Shown: positions 22,946-41,309 of the stretch, piece after piece
How the letters are laid out: each line of letters starts with the position of its first letter
Position numbering within the stretch: the first letter of the stretch is position 1
Assembly: GCA_050944835.1 (NCBI GenBank)
Contig: JBMNRV010000008.1
Span: forward strand, 7,001-71,000
Source of the DNA: Kiritimatiellia bacterium
GTDB lineage: Bacteria > Verrucomicrobiota > Kiritimatiellia > JAAZAB01
Reading direction: 5' to 3'
DNA: 64,000 nt
The notes under the pieces: generated by a model
The model's database searches: none
What the model saw: only the letters and a program-made list of their open reading frames with translations
What the model was told of the DNA's origin: nothing
Translations under genes and position numbers: made by a program

Positions 22946-23001
22946 CTTCAATATGTTAAGTTTATCCACATCCGGAATGCGGGCGGCATAACGGTCTCTC
23001 G

Positions 23002-23316: not shown

Positions 23317-23317
23317 A

Positions 23318-27000: not shown

Positions 27001-27614
27001 CGGTGCCGGCATTTGACACTTCTGTGCGTTACCAGCATGATCTTGTGCCGTCGGCGCGCAAGTTGCTGGAATACAATGGCTTTGCCCTGCGTGCCATCTG
27101 GCGGGTTAAGGATTGGTGGCACGCATCCACGTTTGGCGCGTTCTCCGTCTTTGATGACGATAATTCCCATTTGCATGCGAATGTCGAAAACTTGTGGCGG
27201 ATGTCAACCCGACACAATGTCTGGCTGGGTTTGCATGACTCGGTTGATACGGTGGATCGCGACAGCGATTTGTATTGGACGCCTTACTGGGATCAACGGC
27301 ATTATCTGGTGCTCCGGATCAGCCAGAGTTACCCGAATTATACTGCTGCGGCAAGGTTCCACTTGGGCTTGCAAAAAGAAAAGGCGCGTCAGGAGGACTT
27401 GGATGCATACAATACCGCCAAAGCCGCCGCCGAGGGAAAAGGTTGGTACCCAGGCAGCAATCCGCAGCAGGGTTGGAACTCATTATTGGGATTAGGGGTG
27501 ACGCTATCACGTCGCTGGCAAAGCGGCTGGGAGTTCAGTGGAGAATTTGTCGTCAATGCCATCCGCGACTATACCGAGCATACAATCAGCGGTCGCTTAA
27601 TGTATCGTTTTTAA
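24033..27614 (+). CDS. Exopolysaccharide export/modification protein. It has N-terminal TPR repeats, a central CE4 (NodB/PgaB-like) polysaccharide deacetylase-like domain, and a C-terminal outer-membrane beta-barrel (PgaA/BcsC/PelB-like porin).
   Basis: 1193 aa with signal peptide. Many TPR-like helices (AWSTLGWAYWALDRKQDAAELWQRLLNIAPNEP... and following). Central CE4-like motifs (VTMDDA ~ TFDDG; AYPIGDIGQ ~ RxPYG). The C-terminal ~450 aa are rich in amphipathic beta strands and end in ...RLMYRF (terminal aromatic OMP signature). Confidence 0.55.
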   Translation: MKHHRMRKQVRIVNRGLAWICSIWLGITAAPTVWAQDALELSTNFSSAQAVDDATTAAVVAPTNLAAAKPLEVDQTVRALMYEAMLNVQDKQYEIAIPKLESVIKDDPTLLEAWSTLGWAYWALDRKQDAAELWQRLLNIAPNEPMGYNLMAQVAVYDGDLTRAEELFEKSLTLNPDQYEMRISLARVLLWNGKTEQAAKDLRRLLQEDRDRLDVEIDLAWAMYANEEYEDVLEVWNHINDVIPDQPGYMMARAQVLLLIGSLTEAEAEARRILEIDPGNRDAFNLLANLAMRARRPEEAIDALRIVYDMAKTDAVRAAVALQIASYMKSVYDTDKTVFTLSQCLDAAHDAYKLDEENISCKLFYGELLTSARHFDRAEDVFQSVIKENNPFNLRAHMGLVHILLASMQLDEAEKKINETFRLFNVANPYRHLLWARLHFARGNIPEAMDALDRLEREGAAGAVFTLLYHGISPSEWSDVPSVRQFREHLMVLRRAGFKFITPSQFNDYFAKHDKPPAVEEKRSLLSRALQGVRASWSGRRVEQAQRLSDYTPDMTVCVTMDDALRNSLRYGNVVAEELQVPITMFLPVGNILKHDTYTASFKEIRDYNASGLWEMQSHLMQASYLAMTNQNGREVNPLPNLVWLPEKNRQESLREYHARLRYEFRDSRRILARELGLGESEINAVAYPIGDIGQETTCNIDFFNVPEVILNEAEITYALGFIQDEFGYSMPSDNPMLYKRYEPKRFTTGREVYRAAMRNHPVFAARRMRAEIAALSGELHLAQEMVRLLKRDGYPEEDLEEINTMVHKHVARLMHVPETAPDDISIKKEVLFEPQKPFLAVEGDFTKANVMIESWHGGAAAGLNLNPRLSLNVRAGIGGIKQTVFSNTVVEVEQTSRSSSRSDVTIITDGETMHQTEYRTTVSTVMLQSNRVDEYKYKADEQMVGAALNYIHTHGAYTMLDLRYRSFTGDELDEDAGVLVGSLEHQWRPVPAFDTSVRYQHDLVPSARKLLEYNGFALRAIWRVKDWWHASTFGAFSVFDDDNSHLHANVENLWRMSTRHNVWLGLHDSVDTVDRDSDLYWTPYWDQRHYLVLRISQSYPNYTAAARFHLGLQKEKARQEDLDAYNTAKAAAEGKGWYPGSNPQQGWNSLLGLGVTLSRRWQSGWEFSGEFVVNAIRDYTEHTISGRLMYRF

Positions 27615-27701: not shown

Positions 27702-30700
27702 CTACTCGAACAGCACGATGGCGTCTTGGGCATTGTCGGATTTGACGTCTGCGGCGGAGTCAGTCGGTGTGAGCAGCGGCATGGTGTGCGCGCGGCGCGG
27801 CCCGGCAAATATGCCGTTGAACGGGCAGAATTCACGGACTTCGACTATGCGCCGATCCTTATCGGTGCGCATAACCATGACGGTCTTGTTTGTGCCCAGC
27901 AAGCTGCGTTCTAGTTGCTCGCACCATTCCGCGCTTGGCATTCGATTGACCAACAAGGTCAACCCGTTCAGGTCTAATCCTTGTATCAATGCGAGCATCT
28001 CTGGTATTTTTAAAGTACGCAACGTGGCGGCGCGCACACATGGCAGGAGGCGGATTTGGTAATAGCGGCAGAGGATGCGTAAGTCGGTGAAGTCTTCATT
28101 CGTTTCACGCCGGAGCGTGCCGTCATCTTCTTGCATGAACCAGGGTGGGGCAATCGCGCTCAAGGTGCGCGTCCATGGTTGCAACATCTGAACATAATCG
28201 TCATCGGCCCATGATTCTGCGCGTGGTTTAAACACCCCGATGCGGACGGGCAACGGGCCGCCGCTGACTTCCCGCAGATGAACTTGCGCTACACCGAATT
28301 GCGGCGACCATGGCGCCAGTCCCCACCAACCCAATCCGATTTCGGGCGGGATCGGCAACGGAGCGCCGAAGGCCGGTTTGTCGTTGATGTAACACGACGC
28401 GCCGCAGCCGCGTAACTCCAGACGCAGGCGCACGTTTCCAGGCGGCTTGTTCCAGGCGCGAGTCTGGTTGGCGACAGTCTCGCCATTGTGCCAGACTTGC
28501 AGATAAAGCTGTCCAGTCTGCTCAAACCCGAATCGAATCATGTTCCCTTCACCGCGGCGGGCGTAGAGCCAGAAAAATCCGCGTGTGTCTTCCAACAGGG
28601 CTTCAATGAAACCGCTATGCATCGTGTCGGAACCGGTCAGTCGCAGCACTGCTTCCGTTTGAGCCGGCGCAGCGGTAAGGAGTGGAATTTCATCATCCTG
28701 GTCGGCGGGATCGCCGTAAATATTCCAGTTGGTTGAAATTTGGCCGACGGTGAATTCTTCACGCACGGGCACAGTACGCGGCAGCATTGCAGCGGCCATT
28801 GCGCGTTGCGTGGCGTTGGACGATTGTCGCGCCACATCATCCAGATAATTTATGAGCGGCCATGATTCCGGATGGCTCAGTAGATTCCAGCGCTCAATAA
28901 CCTGAAGCATTTGGCTTTCCATGGCCGGGTCGGCGGCGATTTTCATGATTTCCATGAGGTTGTTGAAGCGGTCGGCTGGTTTCTGGAGTAAGCGATGCAT
29001 CAGAGCGCGCGCGTCCAGATCGCTCGGGTTTTCCTGTATGAGTCGTTGAATTTTCGCCGCTGCGGCCTGCGGCTGTTTTTGAAACAGCAGGAGCTCCGCC
29101 TGCGCCAGTATGATGTCCGGGTTGTTGGGGAAGAGACGCTCATAGACATCCAGCAGGTTTCCGGCATCGTCGCCGCGCTGTGCTTTGGAATACATCAGGC
29201 GCGCACAGCGTACCACAAGGTCAATTTGTCCGGGGTCTTGTTCCAGACTGGCTTGATAGGCGCCAATGGCCGCCCCGATTTCATTCTGTTGCAGATAGGC
29301 ATCGGCGATCAGAGTCATCGGCTCGGCATTGCGTGGGTCCAGTACAGCCCATTGCCGCCAGATTTTAACTGCGTTGTCGAAGTCGCCGCGCTGCAAAGCG
29401 GCGTGGCCCTCTGTGCGCAAGATGTTAGGGCTGGCATCTTGCACCGCGTATGGATCGGCATCGCCGCCGGCCAGCTCATAGAAGGTGATTGGATGCTCAC
29501 TCTGTTCAGGCGTGGCCTTTACTACCGCGATCAAACGGTTAGCGCCGTTGGTTTGGCTCGATTTCAGGAGCGGTGAGTCTGGCGCCACGGCCACGGTTAA
29601 ATTGCTTATGCCTTGGAAGAGCGATGCCAGCGCGGGCACCTGTTCCCAGATTGGCGGTAGGCGCGCAATGATGGAGAGGTTGTGCTTGTTCAAATCCCGG
29701 CTGAACAACTGCAGCCATGTAGTGATCTGGGAAAGCGGCACGGATTGATCCATCTGACTCAGGTTAAGCAGCACGCCCTGCGCCGATAAGGCGGCCGCGT
29801 TGGCGGCAATTTCGCCGGACATGCCGTCTTTAATGCCATCCAGGTTTTCCAGAAAAATTTCCGGCTGAAACATAAGGCGATGAATTCGGGCGACGGCGCT
29901 GTAAAATTCGGCGTTCCAGCCGAATTGTTCGGCATGTCCACCGGCGAAAACCCGCATCCACGGCGGCGAAAAGTGCGTGTAGCGGAAGGCGTTGCGGCTG
30001 ATCCAGTATGCCATGTCGGCGTCGCGGTGGTCGGTCGGTGTAAATGTGATTAACGCCGGTTCGGCGGGCATAAGGTCCAGCGCGGTGATTTCCACGCTGG
30101 CATATCCACGCCGCGGATGCCAAAGGCTGCATCCTATCATACCGGGCCGGATTTCGCCGCGGGTGGAAATAATTTCCTTAAAAATAGGGTGGCCACCAGC
30201 CATGGCGAAAAACAAGCGATCGCGCAAGTAAATATCCAATTGCGCTTCACCGTCCGGTGTGGTGGTGTAACGTCCGGCGCTTAAAGTGAAAGGTTCCATA
30301 CCAGTGTGTTTCTGGCGGAGCCAGGCTTCGCCTTCCGGCGTCAGCACAAGATACAGGTAAGATTCGCCGTCGGGCGAGGCCCGCAAAAAGATGCCGAACT
30401 GTCCAGATTTGATCCGCGCCTGTAAGCGCAGGTGAAAAGCATTGTAAAGGTCGCTGCCGTTCAGCCAGACTTTGGCGCCGGTTGCATCCGGCTGGGCTTG
30501 CAGGATAGCGGAGCGCCCGGTGAGTTTGAATTCGCCCCAGTCCGGCAGCCATGCGAGCGGGGTGTTCATAATTTTCGGGCTGGTATATCCTTTCCGTTTA
30601 GGCCAGGCGTGTTCCAAGCGCTGCATCAGATCATCCGCTGTCCAATCCGATTGCACTAGCAATCGGTTCAGGCGGCGCGGATCAGTATGTCGGGTGTTCA

Positions 30701-31607
30701 GGGCGGTATTGCCATGGATAAAACCCAGATCATAGAAGTGGGAGACCAGGTGCATATTCAGGCGCCGGGTAAATAGCGCGCGTTCATCGTATTGCCCAAA
30801 ATCTCCGTATGGGAAAGCGTATGCGGTAGGAGGCTGGCCGAGTTCATCGGAGATGATTTTACGGCAGTATTCGTGGTCATCAATCAGGCGTTGGCGGAAG
30901 GCATCCGGTGTTTCATAACGCATTTCTCGCGGAAACCAGCGTGGAGTAGTCATGTAATTTCGTTTTTCGCCGGTGTTGTTGGCCAGAACTGTTTCAAATC
31001 CATGATGGCTCTGGGCGCCGGCTTCCCATGCGCCGCTGCGCACCATAGTGCGCACATACGGCCAACGCAACGCTGAAGGGTCTTCATCCATGATCGGTTT
31101 GGTCCAGAGAAACATGACGGCCTGCCACCCGGCGCGTTGCAGGACACGCCGCGCGTCGAAATACGAGGATTTGCGGGAGTGGTCAAAAGTCATCAGGATG
31201 GCTTTGCGCGGCAGCGGGCGGTTTTCACGGTAAAACGCTGTGATGTCGCGTAGAGTAATCGGATGGTATCCGGCCGCCCGTAATGCCTCAAATTGCGCGC
31301 GGAAACGTTCAGGGGTGAGTTCGCCGGGATTAGCGGAAATGCCTTGGTAAGCCAACGCCACAAATTCATAGGCATCGCGTGGGCCGACATCCGTCGGTCG
31401 GAACATAAAGACGCGCGTGACAGCGTAACGGATCGGTGTCCACCAAGCCGCTATCAGGCAGATGATAAGCATGAAGTAAAGCCAAGCTTGCCGATAGCTG
31501 GTCTTCAATGCCTGAACACGCGCCGGCACAATTGGCAGCTTGTCGGCGAGTCTTGACGGACGAGTTGCATCCGTCTGTTTGCCGTGCTGTTCGTTTTCAA
31601 ATTTCAT
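27702..31607 (-). CDS. Inner-membrane-anchored multidomain EPS-modifying protein. It has an N-terminal TM, a CE4 deacetylase-like domain (variant TFDH motif), TPR repeats, and a conserved ~330-aa C-terminal module of unknown function shared with the 33085..35415 product.
   Basis: 1301 aa. N-terminal TM (AWLYFMLIICLIAAWWTPI). CE4-like (ILMTFDHSRKSSY..., AFPYGDFGQ). TPR segment (FDNAVKIWRQWAVLDPRNAEP...AYLQQNEIGAAIGAYQASLEQDPGQ). C-terminal block GFIEALLEDTRGFFWLYARRGEGNMIRFGF...GLGWWGLAPW...GGPLPVRIG is almost colinear with the paralog. ATGA overlap with the upstream GT2 gene suggests translational coupling. Confidence 0.5.
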   Translation of the reverse strand: MKFENEQHGKQTDATRPSRLADKLPIVPARVQALKTSYRQAWLYFMLIICLIAAWWTPIRYAVTRVFMFRPTDVGPRDAYEFVALAYQGISANPGELTPERFRAQFEALRAAGYHPITLRDITAFYRENRPLPRKAILMTFDHSRKSSYFDARRVLQRAGWQAVMFLWTKPIMDEDPSALRWPYVRTMVRSGAWEAGAQSHHGFETVLANNTGEKRNYMTTPRWFPREMRYETPDAFRQRLIDDHEYCRKIISDELGQPPTAYAFPYGDFGQYDERALFTRRLNMHLVSHFYDLGFIHGNTALNTRHTDPRRLNRLLVQSDWTADDLMQRLEHAWPKRKGYTSPKIMNTPLAWLPDWGEFKLTGRSAILQAQPDATGAKVWLNGSDLYNAFHLRLQARIKSGQFGIFLRASPDGESYLYLVLTPEGEAWLRQKHTGMEPFTLSAGRYTTTPDGEAQLDIYLRDRLFFAMAGGHPIFKEIISTRGEIRPGMIGCSLWHPRRGYASVEITALDLMPAEPALITFTPTDHRDADMAYWISRNAFRYTHFSPPWMRVFAGGHAEQFGWNAEFYSAVARIHRLMFQPEIFLENLDGIKDGMSGEIAANAAALSAQGVLLNLSQMDQSVPLSQITTWLQLFSRDLNKHNLSIIARLPPIWEQVPALASLFQGISNLTVAVAPDSPLLKSSQTNGANRLIAVVKATPEQSEHPITFYELAGGDADPYAVQDASPNILRTEGHAALQRGDFDNAVKIWRQWAVLDPRNAEPMTLIADAYLQQNEIGAAIGAYQASLEQDPGQIDLVVRCARLMYSKAQRGDDAGNLLDVYERLFPNNPDIILAQAELLLFQKQPQAAAAKIQRLIQENPSDLDARALMHRLLQKPADRFNNLMEIMKIAADPAMESQMLQVIERWNLLSHPESWPLINYLDDVARQSSNATQRAMAAAMLPRTVPVREEFTVGQISTNWNIYGDPADQDDEIPLLTAAPAQTEAVLRLTGSDTMHSGFIEALLEDTRGFFWLYARRGEGNMIRFGFEQTGQLYLQVWHNGETVANQTRAWNKPPGNVRLRLELRGCGASCYINDKPAFGAPLPIPPEIGLGWWGLAPWSPQFGVAQVHLREVSGGPLPVRIGVFKPRAESWADDDYVQMLQPWTRTLSAIAPPWFMQEDDGTLRRETNEDFTDLRILCRYYQIRLLPCVRAATLRTLKIPEMLALIQGLDLNGLTLLVNRMPSAEWCEQLERSLLGTNKTVMVMRTDKDRRIVEVREFCPFNGIFAGPRRAHTMPLLTPTDSAADVKSDNAQDAIVLFE

Positions 31608-33088
31608 CCGCTACCCCGTGTTCCCCATTTGCCGTGTGAAAGGGTGGCTAAGGCATAATAAATTTGCCAACTGAAAAACACGACATATGTGAATGTAAAC
31701 ACAAATCCCGCCCACCAATGTTTGCGGCCGGTTTTTTGCAGGTGGAAGATTGACCAGATCAACGTCATGGCCAATACGCCGACAGCGTATGAAAGTGTAA
31801 TACCGCCAGTTAGAAGCGGCGCTAAAACGAGCGCCTGCAGGATGATGAACGGCTCAATAACCGGCAAAAACATCATGGCGTACCAAGACAGCGCGGGCAC
31901 AGGATGTTTGCGCCAGATGAATGTGGTTGCGCCGATCATCCCGTGCAGGGAGGAGCGCATCCAGCGCGCCTGTTGCCGGATATATTGCCGCCAGTTTTCC
32001 GGCACAATGGTTGTCGCCAACGCGTCGTCATCATACAGAATGCGGTAGTCGCGCAATACCAGGTTGGTCAGACTGCGATCGTCACCGTAGCGTCCTTCCA
32101 CCCCGAAGACTTTTTCGTTCATCCATTCTTCCATGACATGTAGGATGCAAACCCGACGGTAAGCGGAGAAACAGCCCGGCAGGCAACTGACCATTCCGAA
32201 GATGCTTTCCGATGCCTTCATGATCTTATACGAAAAGAAATAGCGCACATCCTGCATCTTGGTCAACACATTGACGCGGGAGTTTTCCACGTCCGTGTGG
32301 CCGGCAATTCCCCCCACCATCGGATCAATGAATCCCTGTACCAGCTTGCTGACGGCGCCTGGCATCAGGAATGTGTCGGAATCAACGAAAACAATTATAT
32401 CACTGCGCGCCAACAGGGCAGCGCAGGACATCCCATAGGAAAGGCCGCGGTTGAATTCAAAATCCACCACTATCAGACTTCGGAACCGTGCTTGAGCGCG
32501 CATCATTTCCGCCAGAGTATTGTCAGTGGAGCCGTCGTTGACGACGATGACTTCGAGCAACTCATGCGGGTAGCCTTCGGCATACACCCGCGCGATTGAG
32601 CGCGCAATAGCTTTATCTTCATTCATACAGGGTATAGCCACAGTTGTCGGCGGCCTAAATCCTACATCGGGCGGCGGTGCGTAAAAAGCTGCGAAAATGA
32701 AGCGTGAAATAATAAAAATACCGACCACTAAACTGTAAATATTGACGACGGGGGCATACCAGTAATGCTCCATATTGATTACTTGAAAATACACTGCCGT
32801 GGTCAGCAACAAGATGCCTAAGGTGCCGAGCAGTATTATCCCCCAGATCGGCAGTTTGTTATAAAGAAATTTACGGCGCTCTTCCGCGTCTATTTCATGC
32901 GGCAATTCGGCGGGGGGTGGCGGGGTAAACGATGAAAGCGTCAGCGCGCCGCGGCAAAATGGACAAACAGACGGCGTCGGCGCTTCAATGACACTGATTG
33001 AAAGGCGGCAGGCAGGGCATCGGGCCTTAGTGCCGCCGGTTGCGGAAGACGCGGAATTATTGGTAGATGGATGTGTAGAAGAAGTCAT
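31604..33088 (-). CDS. Processive family-2 glycosyltransferase (HasA/NodC/chitin-synthase-like N-acetylglucosaminyl-type synthase) with N-terminal C4 zinc-ribbon and multiple TM helices
   Basis: GT2 catalytic motifs: VIVVNDGSTDNT (DxD-region), FVDSDT, GDDRSLTNLVL (compare HasA GDDRCLTNYA), and QQARW (the QxxRW motif of processive beta-glycan synthases). N-terminal CPACR...CPFCRG zinc ribbon. About 6 TM segments flank the catalytic domain. Confidence 0.85.
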   Translation of the reverse strand: MTSSTHPSTNNSASSATGGTKARCPACRLSISVIEAPTPSVCPFCRGALTLSSFTPPPPAELPHEIDAEERRKFLYNKLPIWGIILLGTLGILLLTTAVYFQVINMEHYWYAPVVNIYSLVVGIFIISRFIFAAFYAPPPDVGFRPPTTVAIPCMNEDKAIARSIARVYAEGYPHELLEVIVVNDGSTDNTLAEMMRAQARFRSLIVVDFEFNRGLSYGMSCAALLARSDIIVFVDSDTFLMPGAVSKLVQGFIDPMVGGIAGHTDVENSRVNVLTKMQDVRYFFSYKIMKASESIFGMVSCLPGCFSAYRRVCILHVMEEWMNEKVFGVEGRYGDDRSLTNLVLRDYRILYDDDALATTIVPENWRQYIRQQARWMRSSLHGMIGATTFIWRKHPVPALSWYAMMFLPVIEPFIILQALVLAPLLTGGITLSYAVGVLAMTLIWSIFHLQKTGRKHWWAGFVFTFTYVVFFSWQIYYALATLSHGKWGTRGSG

Positions 33089-35415
33089 AAAAGCAATATG
33101 GCGTTTGGCGCCTCATGGTCAATCGGCGCAAATTCTTCCGCCATGGCTGGCAGCTCAGGCGGGAGGATTACAGGCAGTATATGTGTGCGCCGCGGCGCGG
33201 GAAACAAGCCGACATGCGCACAGATTTCACGCACCTGCGCGGACGGTTTATTTTCATCCTGCATGACGATCATCAGCGTCAGCGTAGTGTGCAACAGCGC
33301 TTGTTCAGCGGCGGCCAGCCATTCCGGGTTCGGCATCTTGTGCACCAGGATTGTCAAGCCATCGGTGCGGTCGGTGCGCGCCAGTTCGATCAACTCATCA
33401 AAATTCAAGCGATTCGGATGCTCAGTTGCCACCGATGGCAGCAGGCGTACACGATAATAACGGCACAGGAGACGACAATCCATGTCGTCGTCTGTTTTGA
33501 TTGTGGCGATGGCGCCATTCGTGTTTTGGCGATACCAGGCTGGGGCCAGTGCGCTGAGCTCGTGCATACGACTTTTCAGTTGCCGGATTTTTTCCGCCGA
33601 CAATTTACCCTGACAATCCTCATCCTGGGAGGTGGGTGGGATTCCGATACGCACCGGGAGCGGACCTCCTTTCAATCCACGGATGACAGCTCCCGCGCCG
33701 CCGGGCTGCTGACTCCATGGCGCAAATCCCCACCAGCCTAAGCCCATGTCATTCGGTATCGAGAGGGGTGAGCTAAAGGCAGGCGCGTCATCCACGAAAG
33801 CGACGGCGCCATCGCCGCGCAGGTCCAGACGCATTCGCACCGCGCCTTGTCGGCACTGCCGGACACGGTTGTAATTTACGAGCAATTGGCCGTTAAGCCA
33901 GTTTTGCAGGTAAATCCGGTTGTTTTCGTCAAATCCGAACCGAATCATATTGCCTGAGCCGCGGCGGGCATACATCCAGAAAAATCCTCGACTGCTTTCA
34001 ACTACGGCCTCGATAAAACCGTTGGGCATGGATTCCGAACGAGTCAGACGCAGGGATACTTCCGATTGTTTGGCTGCGGTGTCCAGGATCAGGCGGCCGT
34101 GTTGGAATAGGTTGCCATCCTTTGACGCCGCCCAGTCTTGCGACATGCGACCGTGCCGAAATTCTTCTATTGCCGGAGTCTGGCGCGGGAGGAAGTCGGT
34201 GAAAAAGCAGCGTTGTTCGGGTGTGGTTGCCCGCTCCGCCTCCTGTGCGATGAAATTCAGCAACATCCATGATTCCGGGTGGCTCAATAGGTCATGTTCA
34301 CGGATATTGGACGCCAAGGCCGACGCCATGCCGGGACGTTCCGCCGTCGCCAACATAGCGCGCAAGTTATCGAAGCGTTCGCGCATGCTGGGCAATAGGT
34401 CATGCAGCAGGGCCAGCGCCTGCATCTTGTCGGCATCGGATTTGTCCATGCCGCCGTCAATCACTTGTTTGGCAAGGGCACGGGCTTCATCGTGTCGGTG
34501 CCGGCGCACAAGCCAAGCAGCCTGAGCGAGCGCCACCATGGAGTTGTTCGGGAAAATCCGGGCGTAAAAATTCAACAGATCGCGTGCCGCTTCAGGTTTT
34601 CCAGCGGCTGTATCCAGCAGGCGCGCCTTGCGCATGGCCAGCTCAATCTGGCCGGGATAAACTTGCAAGCTGCGGCGGTAATATTGCATGGCTTGTTCTA
34701 TATCGTCAGTAAAAAGATAGACGTCGCCGATGAGCGAAAGAGGTTCAAAGTTTTCCGGCTCCAGCTCGTGCCATTGGGTCCAGATTTTAACCGCATTGGT
34801 GAAGTTGCCGGCATTGAAAGCGTTCCATCCTTCTTGACGCAAGGCATGCGCCCGTAGCTCGGATGTCCAGCGCTCTTCGCGGGTGGGCAAGTCGGATAAT
34901 TCATAATACAAAGCCAATTCCATATCATGGGGCAGATCGGCATAATTGCGTTCGGGCGGCGGCAGGAGCGGCGTCATGGAAGCGCTGAGGGTGACGCCGG
35001 TATAGCTTTCGTAGCCGTGAATCAACAGGTGGTAAACACCCTCTGGTGGCTGTTCGATTTTGATGTCCTCAGTATTGCCCAGTACGAACGGCCGATAGTC
35101 ATATTCGCGCAGGGACGGTTGGTTGGTTTGGGATAGATACAAATCGGCGTCGCCGTCGCCGCCATCCATTGTGATTATCAGGTTTACTTGTCCGGTCTGC
35201 ACGGCAATTGTGAAATACAGAAGTGAGCCCTTCTCGCCGGACAGGTTGGAGATCGTCTGTCCGGCTTGCAGAACGTGCGGTGCGGCAATGTTTTCAATTT
35301 GCGTGGGCGGCGCCGCGACGGCGTCCGGATCGGCGCCTTCCGCCAGGCGTATGATCGGTCCGATGCAGAGCATCAAGATGGCCGTGCGTATAAATATGGA
35401 TTTATTTTTGTGCAT
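33085..35415 (-). CDS. Secreted TPR-repeat protein with N-terminal PPC/pre-peptidase-C-terminal-like beta-sandwich. Paralog of the 27702..31607 C-terminal two-thirds (shared TPR block plus conserved ~330-aa C-terminal module).
   Basis: Signal peptide (MHKNKSIFIRTAILMLCIGPIIRLAEG). PPC-like segment (LYFTIAVQTGQVNLIITMDGGDGDADLYL...). TPR (FTNAVKIWTQWHELEPENFEP...). C-terminal block GFIEAVVESSRGFFWMYARRGSGNMIRFGF...GLGWWGFAPW...GGPLPVRIG. ATGA overlap with the GT2 start. Confidence 0.5.
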   Translation of the reverse strand: MHKNKSIFIRTAILMLCIGPIIRLAEGADPDAVAAPPTQIENIAAPHVLQAGQTISNLSGEKGSLLYFTIAVQTGQVNLIITMDGGDGDADLYLSQTNQPSLREYDYRPFVLGNTEDIKIEQPPEGVYHLLIHGYESYTGVTLSASMTPLLPPPERNYADLPHDMELALYYELSDLPTREERWTSELRAHALRQEGWNAFNAGNFTNAVKIWTQWHELEPENFEPLSLIGDVYLFTDDIEQAMQYYRRSLQVYPGQIELAMRKARLLDTAAGKPEAARDLLNFYARIFPNNSMVALAQAAWLVRRHRHDEARALAKQVIDGGMDKSDADKMQALALLHDLLPSMRERFDNLRAMLATAERPGMASALASNIREHDLLSHPESWMLLNFIAQEAERATTPEQRCFFTDFLPRQTPAIEEFRHGRMSQDWAASKDGNLFQHGRLILDTAAKQSEVSLRLTRSESMPNGFIEAVVESSRGFFWMYARRGSGNMIRFGFDENNRIYLQNWLNGQLLVNYNRVRQCRQGAVRMRLDLRGDGAVAFVDDAPAFSSPLSIPNDMGLGWWGFAPWSQQPGGAGAVIRGLKGGPLPVRIGIPPTSQDEDCQGKLSAEKIRQLKSRMHELSALAPAWYRQNTNGAIATIKTDDDMDCRLLCRYYRVRLLPSVATEHPNRLNFDELIELARTDRTDGLTILVHKMPNPEWLAAAEQALLHTTLTLMIVMQDENKPSAQVREICAHVGLFPAPRRTHILPVILPPELPAMAEEFAPIDHEAPNAILLL

Positions 35416-37798
35416 TCTTGGTGGCCGCAGGCTCTTTGTTTTGGGCTGAACGCGGTTGATTTGCCGGTGTTAAAATTTCCGGCAAATCACGGAGCAAACC
35501 GTGGTTGAGCGCGTAAATCGCATAACCGTCAGCGCCGGCGCTCAGAGCGTCCTGAATTTGACTCAACATTTCCGGCGGCGTCAGCCTGGCAGCGCTGGAA
35601 GCGACACCGATTCCCGGAAGTACGCGTCCGGCAGCGCCGGGTAATGCGATTTGCGCGGTTGTCCATGCGGCAAACTCACCCGGGTTGGCAGTGTAGTTCA
35701 TGGGGCAAACAAAATCAAGAGCATCTTCCCGCAACCATTCTCCCCAGTTTTGGCCTTCCGTTCCGACGCATTCCGGGTAATGCGGGTAAACCGCGGCGGA
35801 TATTATAATGCCGGGTCGGCGCTGACGGAGGCGTTTCGAACAGGCGTTGACGAACTCGCTGATTTGCTGTGCCCGCCATTTGCGGTATTGTTCCCCCAAT
35901 GCGCCGGTCTGAGCCGCCAAGGGCCAAGCGGTTGTTTCCGGCGCATTGACGGCTGCGAAAAACTCTTTCCGGCAAGCCAAACAGCAACAATGCTGGCTGT
36001 CGGGGTAGCGTATGTAATCCAAGTGCAGCCCGTCCGTTGTCACGGCATCGGCCAATTCTTCCAGGCGTGCCAGTTCTAATTCGCGGTTCCGGGTTTGAGA
36101 GGGACAGAGCCAAGCGGTTGTTTGGAATCCAAAGGATTGTTGCAGGCGACCGTCTTGTTCCATTTTTTTGATTTGTGTTGCCGCCAGGCCATCCAGATTC
36201 CAGCAGATATACCAGATATGCGTTTTCAGTCCATTACGGCGGCAGGCTTCAAAAACATCCCGATTCGGATCGGTGTCGCGTGGCACGTGAAGAAAGACAT
36301 CGGTCAATCCGGCAGCAGCCAATTTGGGCGCCACTCGATCCCAGTTTTCTGCCTGCATGGGTGTGCCTACCCAGATGCAGCGCCGTCCCTGGCCCAACTT
36401 CGGCATATTCGCGGCGGCGCGGGCATTCAGCGCTGCTGATAGTTTGTCCGTTAGCCGCCAAGCGGCGGCTGGGTCGCCGGCGTTCAGGACGGCGCGGGCT
36501 TGGTCGCGTAAACTGCGCAGGTCATCAACATCAACGGCATGTTCCCATTCCATAGGGATAGGGCTTGCAGCCAGAACATCGTCCAGTGTGTGCCGTGCGG
36601 CGGCAGCCAGAGTTCCCGGTAGAAATTGATCGAGCAGGGCGGCCAACATGTGCCGCTGCGCTGCGGCATCATCCGCCTGCGGAACATGTGGCATCCAGAT
36701 GCCTTTCGGGGAAGATAAACAGGCGGCTTCGGATTGCCGACGCCCTTGAGCATCGAGCCACCATGCCAGGGTTTTAGTTTCCTTGCTGGCTGCGGATGCC
36801 GTAATCAGGTAGGTGGCGCCGGCTTGAAACACCTGCGGCGGTCCCTGCCAGCTGGGCGCCGTCGCGAAACTCATGGCATGCCAACGGCCTGGACGTTCAG
36901 CGGCGGTGTAGCCGCCGGGTTGCACTCCCATAAGGTTGCCTAGTTTGGCATCGCCACTGTAGCAGACGAATAGGTATCCCTGGCGTTCCAAGTGGCGTTG
37001 AATGTTTTTTAACATTGCGGGTGTAAGATGCGGGTGGCACGGCAGAATCAGCATCCGGTAACGCTGTGGCAAGCTCCGTGAGGCCAGGTCCTCGTCGGAG
37101 ATCATGGCGTAAGGCAGTCCCATTTCCGATAATTGCATACCGATCCAATTAGCGATGCTAGCGCCGAAAGCGCGCTCGGCGGCATTGGCAAACACCTCCG
37201 CCCCGGGCCTGGCGATTGCAATTGCCGCCGATTTGTGGCGCGCCGCATGCAGAATCAGGCGCCCAGCCCCGCGTTTTGCCGACCACGGTGATACGCGATA
37301 GCCTGATGTTGCGCTCCACCCGTCCGGGACGCCCTGGTCTTCAAAATCTGATTTGGGAATCCAATGCCGGGTACGTCCCTGACGCACAGGCAAGGCCGCT
37401 GCGCGCCAGCCTTTGCCAGCGCGCCAGTACCAAGTAATGGATTGAAAAGCGCCCGGATTATCGCAGGTGTATTCCACTTCCAAGCCGTCGGACGCGCTCA
37501 AATCAACTTGGAGGTCGCAATCCCAATAATGCCGGATAGCGTCAGGCATGAACGGGCAAAAGAAGTCTTGTCCATTCGGGGCGTCTCTCACCAGTGGCGT
37601 AAGCGGGCCAGGCTGCCATGCGGAAACTGCATCCGGCAATAAAGACTGGTCGGAATATGCTGGCGGGATGCAAACCGCGCAAAAAAACAATCCTAAAAAC
37701 AACAGTTGGCAAGTTTGCCGTAGATATGCGGCAGCACACTGGCGAATACGGATGGACACAGATGTCACAATTCCATTTCGGGGCATCAGGTATCTCAT
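35402..37798 (-). CDS. GHL10-family glycosyl hydrolase-like protein (YddW/DigH, YngK-like; DUF187) with N-terminal additional domain; putative GlcNAc-glycan hydrolase of the EPS operon
   Basis: 798 aa with signal/TM N-terminus. C-terminal half carries GHL10 hallmarks (TIM-barrel segment ...GLTDVFLHV..., LHLDYIRYP motif, Cys-rich CCCLAC). First gene of a 4-gene overlapping operon (14-nt overlap with the 33085..35415 gene). Confidence 0.55.
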   Translation of the reverse strand: MRYLMPRNGIVTSVSIRIRQCAAAYLRQTCQLLFLGLFFCAVCIPPAYSDQSLLPDAVSAWQPGPLTPLVRDAPNGQDFFCPFMPDAIRHYWDCDLQVDLSASDGLEVEYTCDNPGAFQSITWYWRAGKGWRAAALPVRQGRTRHWIPKSDFEDQGVPDGWSATSGYRVSPWSAKRGAGRLILHAARHKSAAIAIARPGAEVFANAAERAFGASIANWIGMQLSEMGLPYAMISDEDLASRSLPQRYRMLILPCHPHLTPAMLKNIQRHLERQGYLFVCYSGDAKLGNLMGVQPGGYTAAERPGRWHAMSFATAPSWQGPPQVFQAGATYLITASAASKETKTLAWWLDAQGRRQSEAACLSSPKGIWMPHVPQADDAAAQRHMLAALLDQFLPGTLAAAARHTLDDVLAASPIPMEWEHAVDVDDLRSLRDQARAVLNAGDPAAAWRLTDKLSAALNARAAANMPKLGQGRRCIWVGTPMQAENWDRVAPKLAAAGLTDVFLHVPRDTDPNRDVFEACRRNGLKTHIWYICWNLDGLAATQIKKMEQDGRLQQSFGFQTTAWLCPSQTRNRELELARLEELADAVTTDGLHLDYIRYPDSQHCCCLACRKEFFAAVNAPETTAWPLAAQTGALGEQYRKWRAQQISEFVNACSKRLRQRRPGIIISAAVYPHYPECVGTEGQNWGEWLREDALDFVCPMNYTANPGEFAAWTTAQIALPGAAGRVLPGIGVASSAARLTPPEMLSQIQDALSAGADGYAIYALNHGLLRDLPEILTPANQPRSAQNKEPAATKNAQK

Positions 37799-37867: not shown

Positions 37868-38203
37868 TTATTCCCAAACATAAGGGTTATCCTTCTTTGG
37901 GGCGCTGTCAGTGTCAAGATTCGTTCCGGTCGGAATGATTCTGCGGAATATGGGCAACTGCGTTTGCGCCGGCGCTGACTCCGGTGCGGGCACAGGCACG
38001 GGCTCCGGTGCGGGTGCAGGCGGCGGTGGATTATCAATCGGCACTACGAATCTTTCGGCGCGGGAAGACGTTTCCGGCTTTTTTTCAGATATCGCTCCCT
38101 CTAGATGTTTTCGCCGGACGCGGGAATTCCAAATGGTGGCGACGGCAAAAACCAAGCTGAGAATGGAGGCAATAATGGTTGTTGCGGTCAGGCTGTCGTT
38201 CAT
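37868..38203 (-). CDS. Small proline-rich single-pass membrane protein (111 aa), first gene upstream of the EPS operon
   Basis: N-terminal TM (TTIIASILSLVFAVATIW) then PPPPAPAPEPVPVPAPESAPAQ low-complexity linker and a short C-terminal tail. Shares the divergent AT-rich promoter region with the response-regulator gene. Confidence 0.35.
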   Translation of the reverse strand: MNDSLTATTIIASILSLVFAVATIWNSRVRRKHLEGAISEKKPETSSRAERFVVPIDNPPPPAPAPEPVPVPAPESAPAQTQLPIFRRIIPTGTNLDTDSAPKKDNPYVWE

Positions 38204-38440
38204 TTCTTTACCTCATATACGGGTAAAGAATAGGATAAAACAACAATGGGTCAAGCTAATTTTCAGCTAATTTTTCATGTTTCATACGAGCTGTTATGGG
38301 CTTTTCTTGGAAATATGAATTGACTTCTAGTAAACATGCAGGTAAATTTGGCTACTGTTATCGGTTATCTGTTTGTTTGCTTTGGACGGCGCCGGACTGA
38401 TAATCGTTGTGCTTTTGTTTAATGTACTAGAATTGGTGTC
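38204..38440. promoter_or_regulatory. AT-rich divergent intergenic/promoter region between the EPS operon (minus) and the RR-KaiC-like-ExeA-like genes (plus)
   Basis: 237-nt non-coding stretch with markedly lower GC than the flanking genes. Genes diverge from it on both strands. Confidence 0.4.
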
Positions 38441-38812
38441 ATGGCTAAAATTTTAATTATAGACGACGATCAGATGATTCTGGGATACTTCAAACGCATC
38501 CAAGATAAGCTGAAAAAAGAAATCGTCACTGCATCTGACGGGATGGAAGGTTGTCAGATGGCGCAGGATCCCGATGTTAAACTCATAGTTATGGATTTCT
38601 GTATTCCCGGTGGTTTAGAAAAGACATCTTTATTGCAAAAATTGAAAAGCCTACGTCCGGAATTGCCGATAATTGTCATTTCTGGCTTTTCCTCAAAGGA
38701 GATTGTTGAGGAGTGCCACAAATTGGGCGCCAGCGAGTTTTTGTCTAAGCCCTTCGAGTTGTCGTTTTTGCCGACGATTATCCGGCGCTTGTTGGATACC
38801 ACACCGGAGTGA
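38441..38812 (+). CDS. Stand-alone response-regulator receiver domain protein (CheY-like, no output domain)
   Basis: 123 aa. Acidic pocket DDD (ILIIDDDQ), phospho-acceptor Asp in LIVMDF, conserved T/S and Lys (FLSKPF). Confidence 0.85.
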   Translation: MAKILIIDDDQMILGYFKRIQDKLKKEIVTASDGMEGCQMAQDPDVKLIVMDFCIPGGLEKTSLLQKLKSLRPELPIIVISGFSSKEIVEECHKLGASEFLSKPFELSFLPTIIRRLLDTTPE

Positions 38813-38879
38813 TAAATCCATAATGAGGCCTTGTTTCATGTGGTAATTGCTAAAATTACATTAAGAACAATTACTAAGT

Positions 38880-40118
38880 ATGATTACTAAGACATTATTT
38901 GGAATTGATTTCTTTGATGCGCATTACGGCGGCGTTTACCGTGGCCGCCCAGTATTGCTTTCAGGGCGCAAGGGGCTGGGTAAAACAACTATCGCGATGC
39001 AGTTTCTGTGCAAAGGATTACAACAAGACGAAACCTGTCTTATGCTCAATACTTTGCCTAACTATAATCTTGATATTTACGCCGATATGTTAGGTTTCTC
39101 GCTGGCGAACCATGTAAATGACGGACGCTTGATTTTGCTGGAAAGCAGTAATTTTAGCGGTGTTTGCGGAACAAAGATGCTGCCGCCGGAATGTTTTGAG
39201 CAACTGCGTCAAATTATAGATACCCACATGATTCAACGGATGGTGATTGACACGATTGTGCCGCTTGTGGCAGTTAATCCGCCAGAGCGCATAAATGAAC
39301 ACATTTATTCTTTTATGCGTTCTTTTGACCGCTTGGGTGTTACCACCTTGATGACGCTCCCTAAGCCGGTGTCGCCTATGGCTGTCCGGTTGAAAAATGC
39401 TTTGGAAGCCGCCCTGCCGATTTCAATTTTACTGAATTCAACTGATGATCCATCAACCTATACATTTCAGGTGGTGAAGTATATGGGGGCGCCGAAGTTG
39501 GCGGCGCCGGTGAATTATAAATTCAAGACGGGCGCAGGGGTTGTCAGTTGCGCCTCCCTATATGCCGAATCAGTTCAGCCGCCGGCGCAGGCGGTGTCAG
39601 GGCCTCCACCGGCGGAAACTAAATCGTCAGTGTCAGCGCCATCAGAGTCTCCACCGGCAGAAACTAAACCGGCAGTGCCCGCACAGACATGGTTTCCTTT
39701 GGTGCAGGCGGCATCAAGGCTGGCATCAGCGGATGCGCCACGAGCAGAGGCGGCATCACGGCCGACACCAGCGGAGGCGCCACGAGCGGAGGCGGCATCA
39801 AGGCTGACACCAGCGGAGGCGCCACGAGCAGAGGCGGCATCTAGGCCGACACCGGCAGGGTCTTCACCGACGGCGCTTTCATCGGCACCGGTTACATCGG
39901 GATTAAGAATGTCCTCTGTATCTGTGCCAACACTGCTTTATGATGATTCTGGCAATGGGCGCAATGGGCGCAATGGACGCAATAAAGTTATTGAAGAGAC
40001 AAAACCTATGCCGAAAGATGCTGAAAAACCGCCAGCGCTGCCGCCCAGCAATGGGAAATTACGGCTTTCGAACTACACACCCAAAAAAATGCCGCTTGAT
40101 AGGAAGGATGAAGGATGA
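38880..40118 (+). CDS. KaiC/RAD55-like RecA-fold ATPase (single RecA-like domain, ~240 aa) with ~170-aa low-complexity Ala/Pro/Arg/Glu-rich C-terminal tail containing tandem repeats
   Basis: Walker A GRKGLGKTT within a KaiC-like N-terminus (FGIDFFDAHYGGVYRGRPVLLSGRKGLGKTTIAMQFL). Tail has 14-aa repeats AASR(L/P)TPAEAPRAE x3.5 and GNGRNGRNGRN. Confidence 0.6.
   Translation: MITKTLFGIDFFDAHYGGVYRGRPVLLSGRKGLGKTTIAMQFLCKGLQQDETCLMLNTLPNYNLDIYADMLGFSLANHVNDGRLILLESSNFSGVCGTKMLPPECFEQLRQIIDTHMIQRMVIDTIVPLVAVNPPERINEHIYSFMRSFDRLGVTTLMTLPKPVSPMAVRLKNALEAALPISILLNSTDDPSTYTFQVVKYMGAPKLAAPVNYKFKTGAGVVSCASLYAESVQPPAQAVSGPPPAETKSSVSAPSESPPAETKPAVPAQTWFPLVQAASRLASADAPRAEAASRPTPAEAPRAEAASRLTPAEAPRAEAASRPTPAGSSPTALSSAPVTSGLRMSSVSVPTLLYDDSGNGRNGRNGRNKVIEETKPMPKDAEKPPALPPSNGKLRLSNYTPKKMPLDRKDEG
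39708..39860 (+). repeat. In-frame 42-nt tandem repeat (x~3.5) inside the KaiC-like gene tail; a second 9-nt microrepeat (GGCAATGGG-like x3.5) at 39951..39984
   Basis: Units gcggcatca(a/c)ggc(t/c)g(g/a)ca(t/c)cagcgga(t/g)gcgccacgagc(a/g)gag are directly visible at 39708, 39750 and 39792, with a partial copy at 39834. Confidence 0.8.
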
Positions 40119-40187
40119 AGTCGAAGACTGAAGGCAGGGTGAAGGCGGGAGTCGGCGATACCGCCTGCCCTTATTCCACTTGTCCAA

Positions 40188-40220
40188 ATCCGTGTTTATC
40201 CGTGCTTCTTCCCATCTGTT
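40188..40220 (+). promoter_or_regulatory. Phased 10-bp direct repeats ATCCGTG(T/C)TT x2 followed by TTCTTCCCATCTG, ~65 nt upstream of the ExeA-like gene; candidate transcription-factor (response-regulator-type) binding site
   Basis: Sequence aaATCCGTGtttATCCGTGcttcttcccatctg. The same 17-mer ATCCGTGTTTATCCGTG recurs at 61306 (3 phased copies), and a related copy on the minus strand lies at ~63879-63898. Confidence 0.4.
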
Positions 40221-40277
40221 CAGCTTAAGCGCATCTGTGACAAACTTGCCAACGGTCGTTTTTAAGGTTAAATTAAC

Positions 40278-41120
40278 ATGTATTCAGCATTTTGGAATCT
40301 GCGTGAAGCGCCCTTTCGAAATGTGGCCGATCCACGTTTTGCGTATTTGTGTGAACAGCATCATGAAGGTTTAGTCCGACTGATTTATATGGCGCGGACT
40401 CGTAAACTCGGCGGCGTTTTGACTGGGCCATACGGCATCGGCAAATCTATGCTGCTGGAATTGCTGGCGCAGGATCTTCGTCGCGATAATGCGTCGCAAT
40501 TCATCAGCATGGATTGTATGCCGGGGAAACCAATTACGGCTGTGCGCCATATTCTGACGTTAATGAATTATGCTGAGCAGGCACAGACCTTTCAGGATCC
40601 GTTCGAGGCTATTGCCTTTTTGCGCCGGAAAGGCACACTGCTCAAGCATACCGTCCTGGCGATTGATGAAGCTCAATCAATCAATGACCCGGATTTTTAC
40701 AACTTTTTGCTGTTGCTTACAAATATAACCTTCACCGACCGCCAACATGGCTTGTTGCCGGCTTTTACCATAATTCTGGTCGGCACTGGCGAATTGCATC
40801 AGGCGGTGATGAGTCGGGAGTTCATGAGCCAACGCTTGCCATTTACCTGGAATCTGGAGCCGCTCAACCAAAAACAAGTTGTGGAATATGTCCAGCACCG
40901 CATCCGCGTCGTAGGCGGCGATATTTGGATTTTCGACACCGCTGCGTTGGATGCGCTGTCGGTGGCTCAAGGCACCCCGCGATTAATCAATAACATTTGC
41001 GATGTAGCGCTGATGTTGGGGTATGCCGCTAATCTCCGGCAAATAAATCTTGAAATCATGCAGCAAGCGGTACAAGAAATCCATGGGCAGCACCCCAAAA
41101 GTCCGGCGCCAAAGGCGTGA
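40278..41120 (+). CDS. ExeA/GspA/MshM-like AAA+ ATPase (N-terminal ATPase domain only; no peptidoglycan-binding C-terminal domain)
   Basis: ExeA-like start (…FWNLREAPFRNVADPRFAY...), Walker A GPYGIGKS, Walker B/DEAQ (LAIDEAQSIND), sensor region (RLINNICDVALMLGY). 280 aa. Confidence 0.6.
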   Translation: MYSAFWNLREAPFRNVADPRFAYLCEQHHEGLVRLIYMARTRKLGGVLTGPYGIGKSMLLELLAQDLRRDNASQFISMDCMPGKPITAVRHILTLMNYAEQAQTFQDPFEAIAFLRRKGTLLKHTVLAIDEAQSINDPDFYNFLLLLTNITFTDRQHGLLPAFTIILVGTGELHQAVMSREFMSQRLPFTWNLEPLNQKQVVEYVQHRIRVVGGDIWIFDTAALDALSVAQGTPRLINNICDVALMLGYAANLRQINLEIMQQAVQEIHGQHPKSPAPKA

Positions 41121-41234: not shown

Positions 41235-41309
41235 GGGCCGTTAACTCAGCGGGAGAGTGCTATCCTCACACGGTAGAAGTCACAGGTTCAAATCCTGTAC
41301 GGCCCACCA
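41235..41309 (+). tRNA. tRNA-Val (anticodon CAC)
   Basis: Cloverleaf by hand: acceptor GGGCCGT/ACGGCCC, D-stem ACTC/GAGT, anticodon stem CTATC/GGTAG with loop CTCACAC (anticodon CAC), T-arm ACAGG-TTCAAAT-CCTGT, discriminator A, encoded CCA. A TTGACA -35-like hexamer sits at 41154. Confidence 0.9.

Follow-up and report, generated by a model that had tools for sequence, protein, structure and literature searches.

The window analysed here is a 64,000-nt stretch of contig JBMNRV010000008.1 (GCA_050944835.1) from a Kiritimatiellia bacterium, and the subject of this study is a cassette of four genes that lies beside a synthase-dependent exopolysaccharide (EPS) operon. Three of the genes are plus-strand open reading frames (ORFs) that encode a receiver (38441-38812; 123 aa), a KaiC-like P-loop protein (38880-40118; 412 aa) and an ExeA-like AAA+ ATPase (40278-41120; 280 aa). 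These genes were found as described in a first-pass annotation of the DNA, and Pfam matches all three proteins, to Response_reg, KaiC (PF06745) and AAA_22, respectively. That annotation counted a trio; the cassette has a fourth gene, which encodes a small membrane anchor on the opposite strand (37868-38203). The source annotations describe cassette proteins as 'hypothetical', 'RAD55 family ATPase' or 'AAA family ATPase'. A literature search on the receiver/KaiC-like/ExeA-like combination or on TIGR03015 returned no relevant paper, in agreement with the earlier statement that no described system with this trio was known. The window holds no second copy of the cassette.

A divergent control region (38204-38440) lies between the starts of the receiver gene and of the gene that comes first on the minus strand. 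It is exactly 237 bp long and AT-rich (GC content 0.363 vs 0.544 for the window), as reported in the first pass. A consensus scan identifies TTGACT-17-TAAATT (38320-38348), which points toward the receiver gene, and TTGACC-16-TATTCT (38254-38227, minus strand), which points toward the small-protein gene and the EPS operon. The number of matches in the scan is no higher than in shuffled sequences (9 vs 5.1 ± 2.1). When the spacer is aligned with those of three relatives, ATTGACTTC and GTCAAGCTAA are invariant; the two -35-like boxes carry weight only because they are conserved in relatives, and not from the scan count. A riboswitch or other RNA element in the spacer was considered and rejected. 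Rfam places none there at the family gathering score; below threshold, two matches at chance level fall on the spacer and the receiver gene, and the sole match at the gathering score is a tRNA downstream. This tRNA-Val gene (anticodon CAC; 41235-41309, plus strand; Rfam 64.8 bits, with ARAGORN concurring) lies directly 3' of the ExeA-like gene, where the cassette ends.

Conservation of the cassette in related genomes

Fifteen loci were compared. Eleven came from an alignment scan with the KaiC-like protein, with one genome taken per species, and four were reached through distant ExeA-like homologues. They derive from Kiritimatiellia, Verrucomicrobiota, Lentisphaerae, the 'PVC group' (Planctomycetes, Verrucomicrobia, Chlamydiae) and unclassified metagenome-assembled genomes (MAGs); the closest genomes in the KaiC-like scan are Kiritimatiellia MAGs. 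In all 14 loci whose sequence continues beyond the KaiC-like gene, the order receiver, KaiC-like, AAA_22 is kept, at KaiC-like identities of between 78% and 40%, and the reading frames of the cassette often overlap by 4-8 nt. The trio proposed in the first pass is therefore recurrent. The small membrane protein recurs with it: orthologues of the same design are encoded in 13 of the 15 loci. Its gene is divergent in the window locus, in L007-L011 and in L014, and lies directly downstream of AAA_22 in L012, L013, L016, L017, L018, L020 and L021. In the last five of these, the reading frames of AAA_22 and the anchor share 4-8 nt; about 90 nt separate the two genes in L012 and L013. The gene at 37868-38203 is a member of the cassette and not an ordinary EPS gene.

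The cassette also keeps company with EPS genes. At 12 of the 15 loci, genes for a GT2, a PgaB-like deacetylase, TPR proteins, GHL10, MBOAT or DUF459 proteins are found within 10 kb. The first-pass annotation had asked whether the trio always adjoins GT2/TPR-porin genes; the link to the EPS set holds nearly always, and L019 has no EPS gene within 10 kb. The other two loci counted as lacking the set are L020 and L021, in which a contig end just upstream of the receiver gene cuts the neighborhood. In L016 and L017, a single strand carries genes for MBOAT, DUF459, TPR/deacetylase, receiver, KaiC-like, AAA_22 and small proteins, GHL10 and a hybrid histidine kinase, in that order, so that the cassette sits inside the EPS operon with the TPR/deacetylase gene on one side and GHL10 on the other. 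In L014 and L015, the accessory EPS genes come after the AAA+ gene, and L021 has a hybrid kinase at the end of the locus.

Two loci depart from these layouts. L018 (5062-11201) contains a duplicated module in the order receiver, KaiC-like, PAS histidine kinase, receiver, KaiC-like, AAA_22, anchor, which is followed by a dCache-HAMP-PAS kinase of 1591 aa and additional response regulators; this arrangement suggests multi-input phosphorelay control. In L019 (4792-10864), from a Kiritimatiellia MAG, the trio follows a gene for a 1270-aa DUF3857/transglutaminase-like protein, and no Y-x-W-E anchor is detected.

Features of the four proteins

The receiver (38441-38812, plus strand) is a stand-alone CheY-like domain that matches Response_reg (PF00072) with an E-value of 2.7e-19 (69.8 bits vs a cut-off of 30.2) over profile positions 1-110 of 111. 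It has a phospho-acceptor, Asp52, together with the acidic pair D8/D9, S81 and K103. Across 15 receiver orthologues, D8, D9, D52, S81-G and K103 are invariant, as is the motif 'KPFE'. Because every phospho-acceptor residue is invariant, the receiver should be phosphorylatable. Histidine kinases are encoded in the operon of the relatives L016, L017, L018 and L021.

The second protein (38880-40118, plus strand) is a single-domain member of the KaiC family. It matches PF06745 over residues 8-169 (4.7e-21; 75.7 bits vs a cut-off of 26.6). The folded domain spans approximately residues 1-225 (38880-39555), and the AlphaFold2 (AF2) model, with a pLDDT of 86.6, loses confidence after about residue 225. 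The first-pass annotation had named a generic RecA/RadA recombinase as the outcome that would undo its assignment. That identity is ruled out, since KaiC scores far better in both the PDB profile search and the structural comparison. The family profile finds KaiC at 2e-34, mainly through the CI domain, and RecA chains match only around the P-loop; in Foldseek, the top 50 PDB entries are all KaiC, with target-normalised TM scores of 0.80-0.85 for the CI-domain chains among them. The protein contains one KaiC-like domain rather than a CI+CII tandem, and the circadian KaiC models of NCBIfam score 42-52 bits vs cut-offs of 408-546. No KaiA or KaiB is present among the neighboring and window genes scanned. 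A search of 1.84 billion representative proteins returned about 50 clusters at 50% identity above approximately 190 bits, which makes this a small family; a protein identical to that of the window is present on nine metagenome contigs.

The active site of the family was examined in an alignment of 55 sequences. Walker A is kept (G29, G34, K35 in 53 of the 55 sequences, and T/S36), as is the Walker B residue D124. Residues 59-60, which align with E77/E78 of KaiC, are M/L/R followed by P/A/L and are never Glu in any of the 55. The KaiC sequence 'K224-L-R226-G' is replaced by K200-Y-L/M-G, which means that the Lys is retained and the Arg finger is lost. A near-invariant E176 occupies the region aligned with the KaiC phosphosites, in which the family resembles CI and is unlike CII. 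Canonical two-domain KaiCs lower in the same search list keep 'FEE' and 'K-x-R-G'. As far as sequence comparison can tell, this shows that the small KaiC-like family is derived in having lost the catalytic Glu pair and the Arg finger. Given these losses, the protein is predicted to bind ATP and to hydrolyze it poorly or not at all. The first-pass annotation had envisaged that the KaiC-like protein would autophosphorylate and that phosphotransfer to the receiver would occur. Such an autokinase is unlikely, because the Glu pair and the Arg finger are lost, a Glu stands near the phosphosite positions, and kinases are encoded in the operons of relatives. The 'timer' that was also suggested gained no specific support.

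Beyond the folded domain, the KaiC-like protein has a Pro/Ala/Ser-rich, disordered tail. The long disordered repeat tail noted in the first pass was recovered both as the loss of AF2 confidence and as a tandem repeat of 42 nt x 3.5 (39706-39853, plus strand; Tandem Repeats Finder score 240, 89% matches), which encodes 14-aa units, AEAASRPTPAEAPR. The repeat is a lineage-specific expansion; the tails of close homologues are 60-90 aa shorter. Length in this family is hypervariable through the tail, with 412 aa here compared to 322-350 aa in four relatives that are 71-79% identical. A cluster representative that is 100% identical has 307 aa and is possibly truncated. The tail of the window protein carries the motifs LRMSSVSV (family form P[VI]RFS[SN]V) and KLRLSNYTP (family form RL[SA]x[VI]WKP), and one or two such basic-hydrophobic-Ser motifs (RFSxV, RLSxVWKP) are always kept in the otherwise variable tails. 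These motifs could be docking strands or Ser phosphosites.

The third protein (40278-41120, plus strand) is a stand-alone ExeA/COG3267-type AAA+ ATPase of 280 aa that matches AAA_22 at 3.1e-13. TIGR03015, the NCBIfam model for the XrtA/PEP-CTERM ExeA-like ATPase, aligns over its entire length (positions 1-269 of 269; 6e-32), and the score of 111 bits falls below the 324-bit cut-off, which places the protein in a sister subfamily rather than as an equivalog. No exosortase is encoded near the window gene. The protein begins with the motif MYxxxWNLxExPF; we take a 'Y..W/F.L.E.PF' N-terminal leader to be a hallmark of the ExeA family. Its catalytic elements comprise Walker A (G50, G53, G55 and K56), Walker B (D130-E131, 'DEAQ'), sensor-1 (N149), sensor-2 (P234-R235) and a putative Arg finger (R186). 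These motifs are invariant among 50 homologues, with E131 nearly so. The AF2 model has a pLDDT of 90.2, and its nearest folds in Foldseek are ORC/Cdc6, RuvB, MuB and TnsC.

The first-pass annotation regarded this protein as a truncated ExeA from which the peptidoglycan-binding domain was missing. Truncation is ruled out by the length of the family (231-306 aa), which is natively about 280 aa. Among 120 listed homologues, 117 have 271-306 aa and the other three have 231, 245 and 257 aa and cover only 68-90% of the query; none of the 120 has a transmembrane (TM) or peptidoglycan-binding extension. The protein has no significant similarity to GspA of E. coli. By sequence, its nearest named relatives are short EPS-locus ATPases of the TIGR03015 type rather than GspA of the type II secretion system (T2SS); full-length identity is 27-30% to the short ATPases encoded in EPS loci of D. 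vulgaris pDV and Roseobacter pTB2. In these two loci (L023, 9001-10320, and L024, 8989-9870, respectively), the short ExeA-like ATPase adjoins a chain-length determinant and a BY-type tyrosine autokinase. The BY-kinase is a P-loop protein with a phosphorylatable tail, a parallel to the window AAA+ protein, which is paired with a tailed P-loop protein. Coupling to a receiver and a KaiC-like protein was not seen in either of these two COG3267 EPS loci.

The fourth protein (37868-38203, minus strand) is a single-pass membrane protein of 111 aa that has no match in Pfam or NCBIfam. From its N-terminus, it consists of a TM helix, the sequence RVRRKH, a variable Pro-rich linker, IFRRIIPTG and a C-terminal YVWE. 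The corresponding family motifs are F-[RK]-x-[VI]-x-P-x-G and then a C-terminal Y-[VLAQ]-W-E. The placement of RVRRKH after the TM helix indicates, by the positive-inside rule, that the C-terminus is cytosolic, and the periplasmic part is only about 5-10 residues, before the helix. None of the four cassette proteins has a DNA-binding domain (helix-turn-helix, winged helix or other) detectable by Pfam or NCBIfam.

The adjacent EPS operon and fused relatives

The operon that shares the control region with the cassette (27702-37798, minus strand) is of the synthase-dependent type according to Pfam and NCBIfam, and it co-occurs with the cassette in relatives. In the direction of transcription, it encodes a GHL10-like protein (35402-37798), a PPC+TPR protein of 776 aa (33085-35415), a NodC/PgaC/chitin-synthase-like GT2 (31604-33088) and a PgaB-like deacetylase+TPR protein of 1301 aa (27702-31607). 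Accessory EPS genes recognized by Pfam are convergent with the operon (21500-27614, plus strand) and encode an MBOAT O-acyltransferase (21500-22945), a DUF459/SGNH protein (23318-24073) and a TPR protein of 1193 aa (24033-27614), whose homologues in relatives also match Polysacc_deac_1. The polymer is probably of the GlcNAc type (poly-GlcNAc), de-N-acetylated and O-acylated. No PilZ or GGDEF domain was detected in the EPS genes at 21500-27614 or 27702-37798. This operon is the likely target of the cassette.

Two features of the operon proteins deserve description. In the GT2, which lacks a PilZ domain, about 110 cytosolic residues extend the N-terminus and include a CxxC...CxxC zinc-ribbon-like motif; a regulatory complex could dock on this extension. 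The deacetylase+TPR and PPC+TPR proteins share a long homologous region that has no Pfam assignment (phmmer 6e-142), which points to an internal duplication of an uncharacterised C-terminal module within the operon.

Natural fusions support physical coupling of the receiver, the KaiC-like protein and the AAA+ ATPase. In P0257, a KaiC-like domain is joined through a Pro-rich linker to a full ExeA-like AAA_22 domain; the protein is 33% identical to the window AAA+ protein over 269 aa (1e-49) and 30% identical to the window KaiC-like protein (3e-28). P0262 and P0268 begin with a degenerate receiver-like region that bears the family motif 'PFE[LV]', followed by the KaiC-like domain. P0273 combines a KaiC-like domain, a receiver (REC) domain and a degenerate GGDEF domain, and it belongs to a family of about 560 aa from Calditrichota MAGs.

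The P0273 family extends the link to EPS genes. In three of four Calditrichota loci, its gene heads an operon that continues with a TPR protein (~1000 aa), a GT2 and a bitopic protein, and in two of those three operons (L027 and L029) a deacetylase (~900 aa) follows the bitopic protein. The GT2 proteins of these operons match the window GT2 at 1e-27 to 2e-30. The bitopic proteins of L027 and L029 are like the anchor of the window, with a TM helix, a basic patch, a Pro/Gln-rich linker, the sequence 'MRRFT[LP]PE' and a C-terminal [VT]WK; that of L028 has the TM helix and basic patch only. The Calditrichota operons thus tie a KaiC-like regulator and a tail-motif anchor to GT2/TPR/deacetylase operons in two phyla. 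Just upstream of the KaiC-like-REC-GGDEF gene in L027 (6346-9516, minus strand) and L029 (6274-9075, minus strand), a divergent gene encodes a large SARP/MalT-like protein with BTAD, AAA_16/AAA_22 and TPR domains, which may be a transcriptional regulator of that EPS operon.

A proposed complex at the EPS synthase and its alternatives

The closest described system in how the cassette would work is that of BcsE, BcsF and BcsQ(R), the regulatory 'vestibule' of E. coli-type (type II) cellulose secretion. BcsE, the N-terminal domain of which was modeled on KaiC, consists of a degenerate RecA-like NTPase module followed by REC* and GGDEF* domains (PMC7439463, PMC7840130). The peptide BcsF crosses the inner membrane once; its cytosolic tail extends the NTPase sheet of BcsE by a beta-strand and recruits BcsE2R2Q2 to the synthase (PMC11470070). 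The window cassette resembles this system in several ways. The cytosolic regulators are divergent from the synthase operon in both cases (bcsEFG from bcsRQABZC in E. coli). A RecA/KaiC-like NTPase module accompanies a receiver, in adjacent genes here and within one chain in P0262, P0268 and the P0273 family. A single-pass membrane protein with a cytosolic tail is co-encoded in both systems, as BcsF just downstream and as the anchor in 13 of the 15 loci. An extra P-loop ATPase is a partner, and BcsQ holds ATP. The P0273 family has the exact domain order of BcsE and heads GT2/TPR/deacetylase operons. There are also differences. The window receiver is a separate, phosphorylatable protein, whereas REC* of BcsE is incompetent for phosphotransfer; the window cassette has no GGDEF* or cyclic di-GMP (c-di-GMP) site, a degenerate GGDEF being found only in the fused Calditrichota relatives. 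Walker A is intact in the KaiC-like protein and degenerate in BcsE, the partner ATPase is an AAA+ protein of the ExeA type whereas BcsQ belongs to SIMIBI, and the polymer is probably of the GlcNAc type whereas that of Bcs is cellulose.

Other systems share parts of this design. ArlH (FlaH), of the archaellum motor, is a single-domain KaiC-like protein that binds ATP without hydrolyzing it and stimulates its partner ATPase ArlI (PMC8978795). Like the window protein, it has one KaiC-like domain, and it modulates a hexameric ATPase at the membrane in a machine with CheY input. However, the window protein scores 17.9 bits with NF052589 vs a cut-off of 215, is bacterial, has an AAA+ partner rather than a secretion ATPase, and carries a long disordered tail with motifs; its locus has an EPS synthase and no archaellum or type IV filament genes. 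Cyanobacterial circadian KaiC is the best match in sequence and fold, with Walker A, Walker B and the Lys equivalent to K224 kept, yet the window protein differs in having one domain, no E77/E78, no R226 and Glu rather than Ser/Thr near the phosphosites. The AAA+ protein is like ExeA, MshM and TIGR03015 in its AAA_22 core, its 'DEAQ' Walker B and its full-length TIGR03015 alignment, and like MshM and TIGR03015 in being a short soluble form near TPR proteins. Unlike T2SS ExeA, it has no TM or peptidoglycan-binding domain and no secretin is encoded in any locus. Its coupling to a receiver and a KaiC-like protein sets it apart from the ATPases of the two COG3267 EPS loci examined. The short ExeA-like ATPases of Wzx/Wzy and PEP-CTERM EPS loci lie beside a chain-length determinant, a BY-kinase, an outer-membrane polysaccharide export (OPX) protein and TPR proteins. 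Finally, in the EpsW-EpsZ pair of Myxococcus xanthus, a phosphorylated single-domain regulator, EpsW~P, binds a biosynthetic enzyme and activates EPS synthesis post-translationally (PMC12802240); that pair differs in its Wzx/Wzy pathway, its phosphoglycosyl transferase target and its absence of ATPases and an anchor.

Together, these observations favor, with a probability that we put at roughly 55%, the view that the four proteins form one cytosolic, membrane-tethered complex that regulates or assembles the adjacent EPS machine. Gene linkage, motif status, the fusions and the association with EPS genes are observed directly, while the protein contacts, the direction of signaling and the effect on the synthase are all inferred by analogy with BcsE, BcsF and BcsQ. 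In this mechanism, a histidine kinase, encoded elsewhere in this genome and within the operon in relatives, would phosphorylate the receiver at Asp52. The phosphorylated receiver would then dock on the ATP-loaded KaiC-like protein, which would act as a nucleotide-dependent scaffold or switch rather than as a clock kinase. The KaiC-like domain and its tail motifs would engage the AAA+ ATPase and the cytosolic tail of the anchor, and the anchor would draw the complex to the inner membrane beside the GT2 synthase. There, the complex would activate or stabilize the synthase/export complex, with Asp phosphorylation standing in for the c-di-GMP of the Bcs system. Post-translational control or assembly of the EPS exporter had been suggested in the first-pass annotation, and we judge it the best reading; within the earlier interpretation, control of EPS has stood, and KaiC-to-receiver phosphotransfer and the 'truncated ExeA' have not.

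Several observations weigh against this proposal. BcsE and BcsF have no detectable similarity to the cassette proteins by hhalign (probability 0.1), BLASTP or the Pfam models PF10995 and PF11120, so the link to Bcs is an analogy of architecture and not demonstrated homology. Those window ORFs of at least 180 aa that were scanned include no histidine kinase. An invariant Glu88 in the KaiC-like family is a candidate that could serve as an alternative catalytic base, which makes 'non-hydrolysing' a prediction only. The modeled AAA+ fold, being initiator/loader-like, would be compatible with a role on nucleic acid. P0257 keeps the internal Met of its AAA+ part and is a single cluster representative, so this fusion may reflect a lost stop codon or an assembly error. 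Finally, the trio occurs without an EPS gene within 10 kb in L019, which suggests that the module may not be limited to EPS; the cassette may serve other envelope systems too.

A less probable view, to which we give about one chance in five, is that the AAA+ ATPase, the KaiC-like protein and the anchor act as an envelope-assembly chaperone in the style of ExeA/MshM, building or inserting the periplasmic/outer-membrane TPR export scaffold of the EPS system, with the receiver only timing assembly and synthase activity not being switched. ExeAB drives assembly of the T2SS secretin, and the window ATPase is of the same COG3267/ExeA type with intact motifs. Its partnership with a small bitopic protein is reminiscent of GspA-GspB, neighbors in E. 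coli, large TPR proteins are encoded near the cassette, and short ExeA-like ATPases elsewhere adjoin TPR proteins and export genes of the OPX and polysaccharide co-polymerase (PCP) types. BcsRQ, moreover, has been suggested to help with sorting or stability of the synthase (PMC7840130). However, no cassette component extends into the periplasm, as the ATPase lacks a TM segment and the anchor exposes only its few N-terminal residues. The ATPase also lacks a peptidoglycan-binding domain and similarity to GspA, and no locus has secretin or pilus genes. Such a chaperone would differ from the membrane-tethered regulatory complex in assembly versus activation, and it overlaps that explanation rather than competing with it outright.

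Control of EPS gene expression, whether at transcription, antitermination or translation and with the AAA+ protein acting on nucleic acid, or else a slow KaiC-type timer with expression as its output, appears improbable. The conserved divergent promoter region common to the cassette and the EPS operon would suit such a role, as would the proximity of the AAA+ fold to the DNA-binding proteins ORC/Cdc6, MuB and TnsC. BcsE uses its RecA-like domain to bind Nus antitermination factors (PMC7439463), and KaiC proteins are the cores of timers. Against this, the four proteins have no DNA-binding domain and the AAA+ protein stops right after its lid domain, a dedicated membrane anchor fits poorly with a DNA-bound regulator, and the cassette lies mid-operon in L016 and L017. 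A clock is disfavored by the lost catalytic residues, the single KaiC domain and the lack of KaiA and KaiB among the window genes scanned.

That the genes are unrelated neighbors, or serve recombination, repair or anti-phage defense as RecA/RadA-type or defense NTPases, is very improbable: the KaiC-like protein does share the fold of the RecA superfamily, and RecA chains enter the PDB list through the P-loop only, but in sequence and fold KaiC ranks above RecA by many orders of magnitude, and the order kept in 14 of 14 loci, together with the fusions, effectively refutes mere adjacency. Chance adjacency is ruled out, since the gene order is far beyond chance, and an anti-phage defense system is ruled out by a PADLOC scan with no significant match (best E 0.002, 15.6 bits); scans of the window ORFs found no mobile-element or phage genes near the cassette.

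The component families of the cassette are known; what is new is its four-part combination, the tight link to a GlcNAc-polymer synthase and the presence of a phosphorylatable receiver in place of c-di-GMP sensing. To our knowledge, the well-studied synthase-dependent systems (cellulose, alginate, Pel and PNAG, that is, poly-GlcNAc) are all switched on post-translationally by c-di-GMP. We suggest, tentatively and as a joint claim that we hold to be rather less probable than the complex itself, that the cassette represents an unrecognized class of phosphorylation-gated, c-di-GMP-independent EPS activators, in which a receiver would control an ATP-loaded, disabled KaiC-family ring or scaffold that is tethered by a tail-motif anchor and uses an AAA+ motor to turn on a GlcNAc-polymer synthase, and in which the split forms of PVC bacteria and the fused forms of Calditrichota would link true KaiC-family ATPases in evolution to BcsE, the orphan 'NTPase*-REC*-GGDEF*' protein of enterobacterial cellulose systems.

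If this is correct, abundant uncultured PVC and Calditrichota bacteria of digesters, sediments and guts would use a second, phosphorylation-based logic for matrix production. The KaiC family would have a non-clock role in bacteria, parallel to that of ArlH in archaea, and the fused relatives would hint at the origin of the BcsE architecture. The short ExeA-like ATPases of EPS loci, which are widespread, would gain a testable set of partners.

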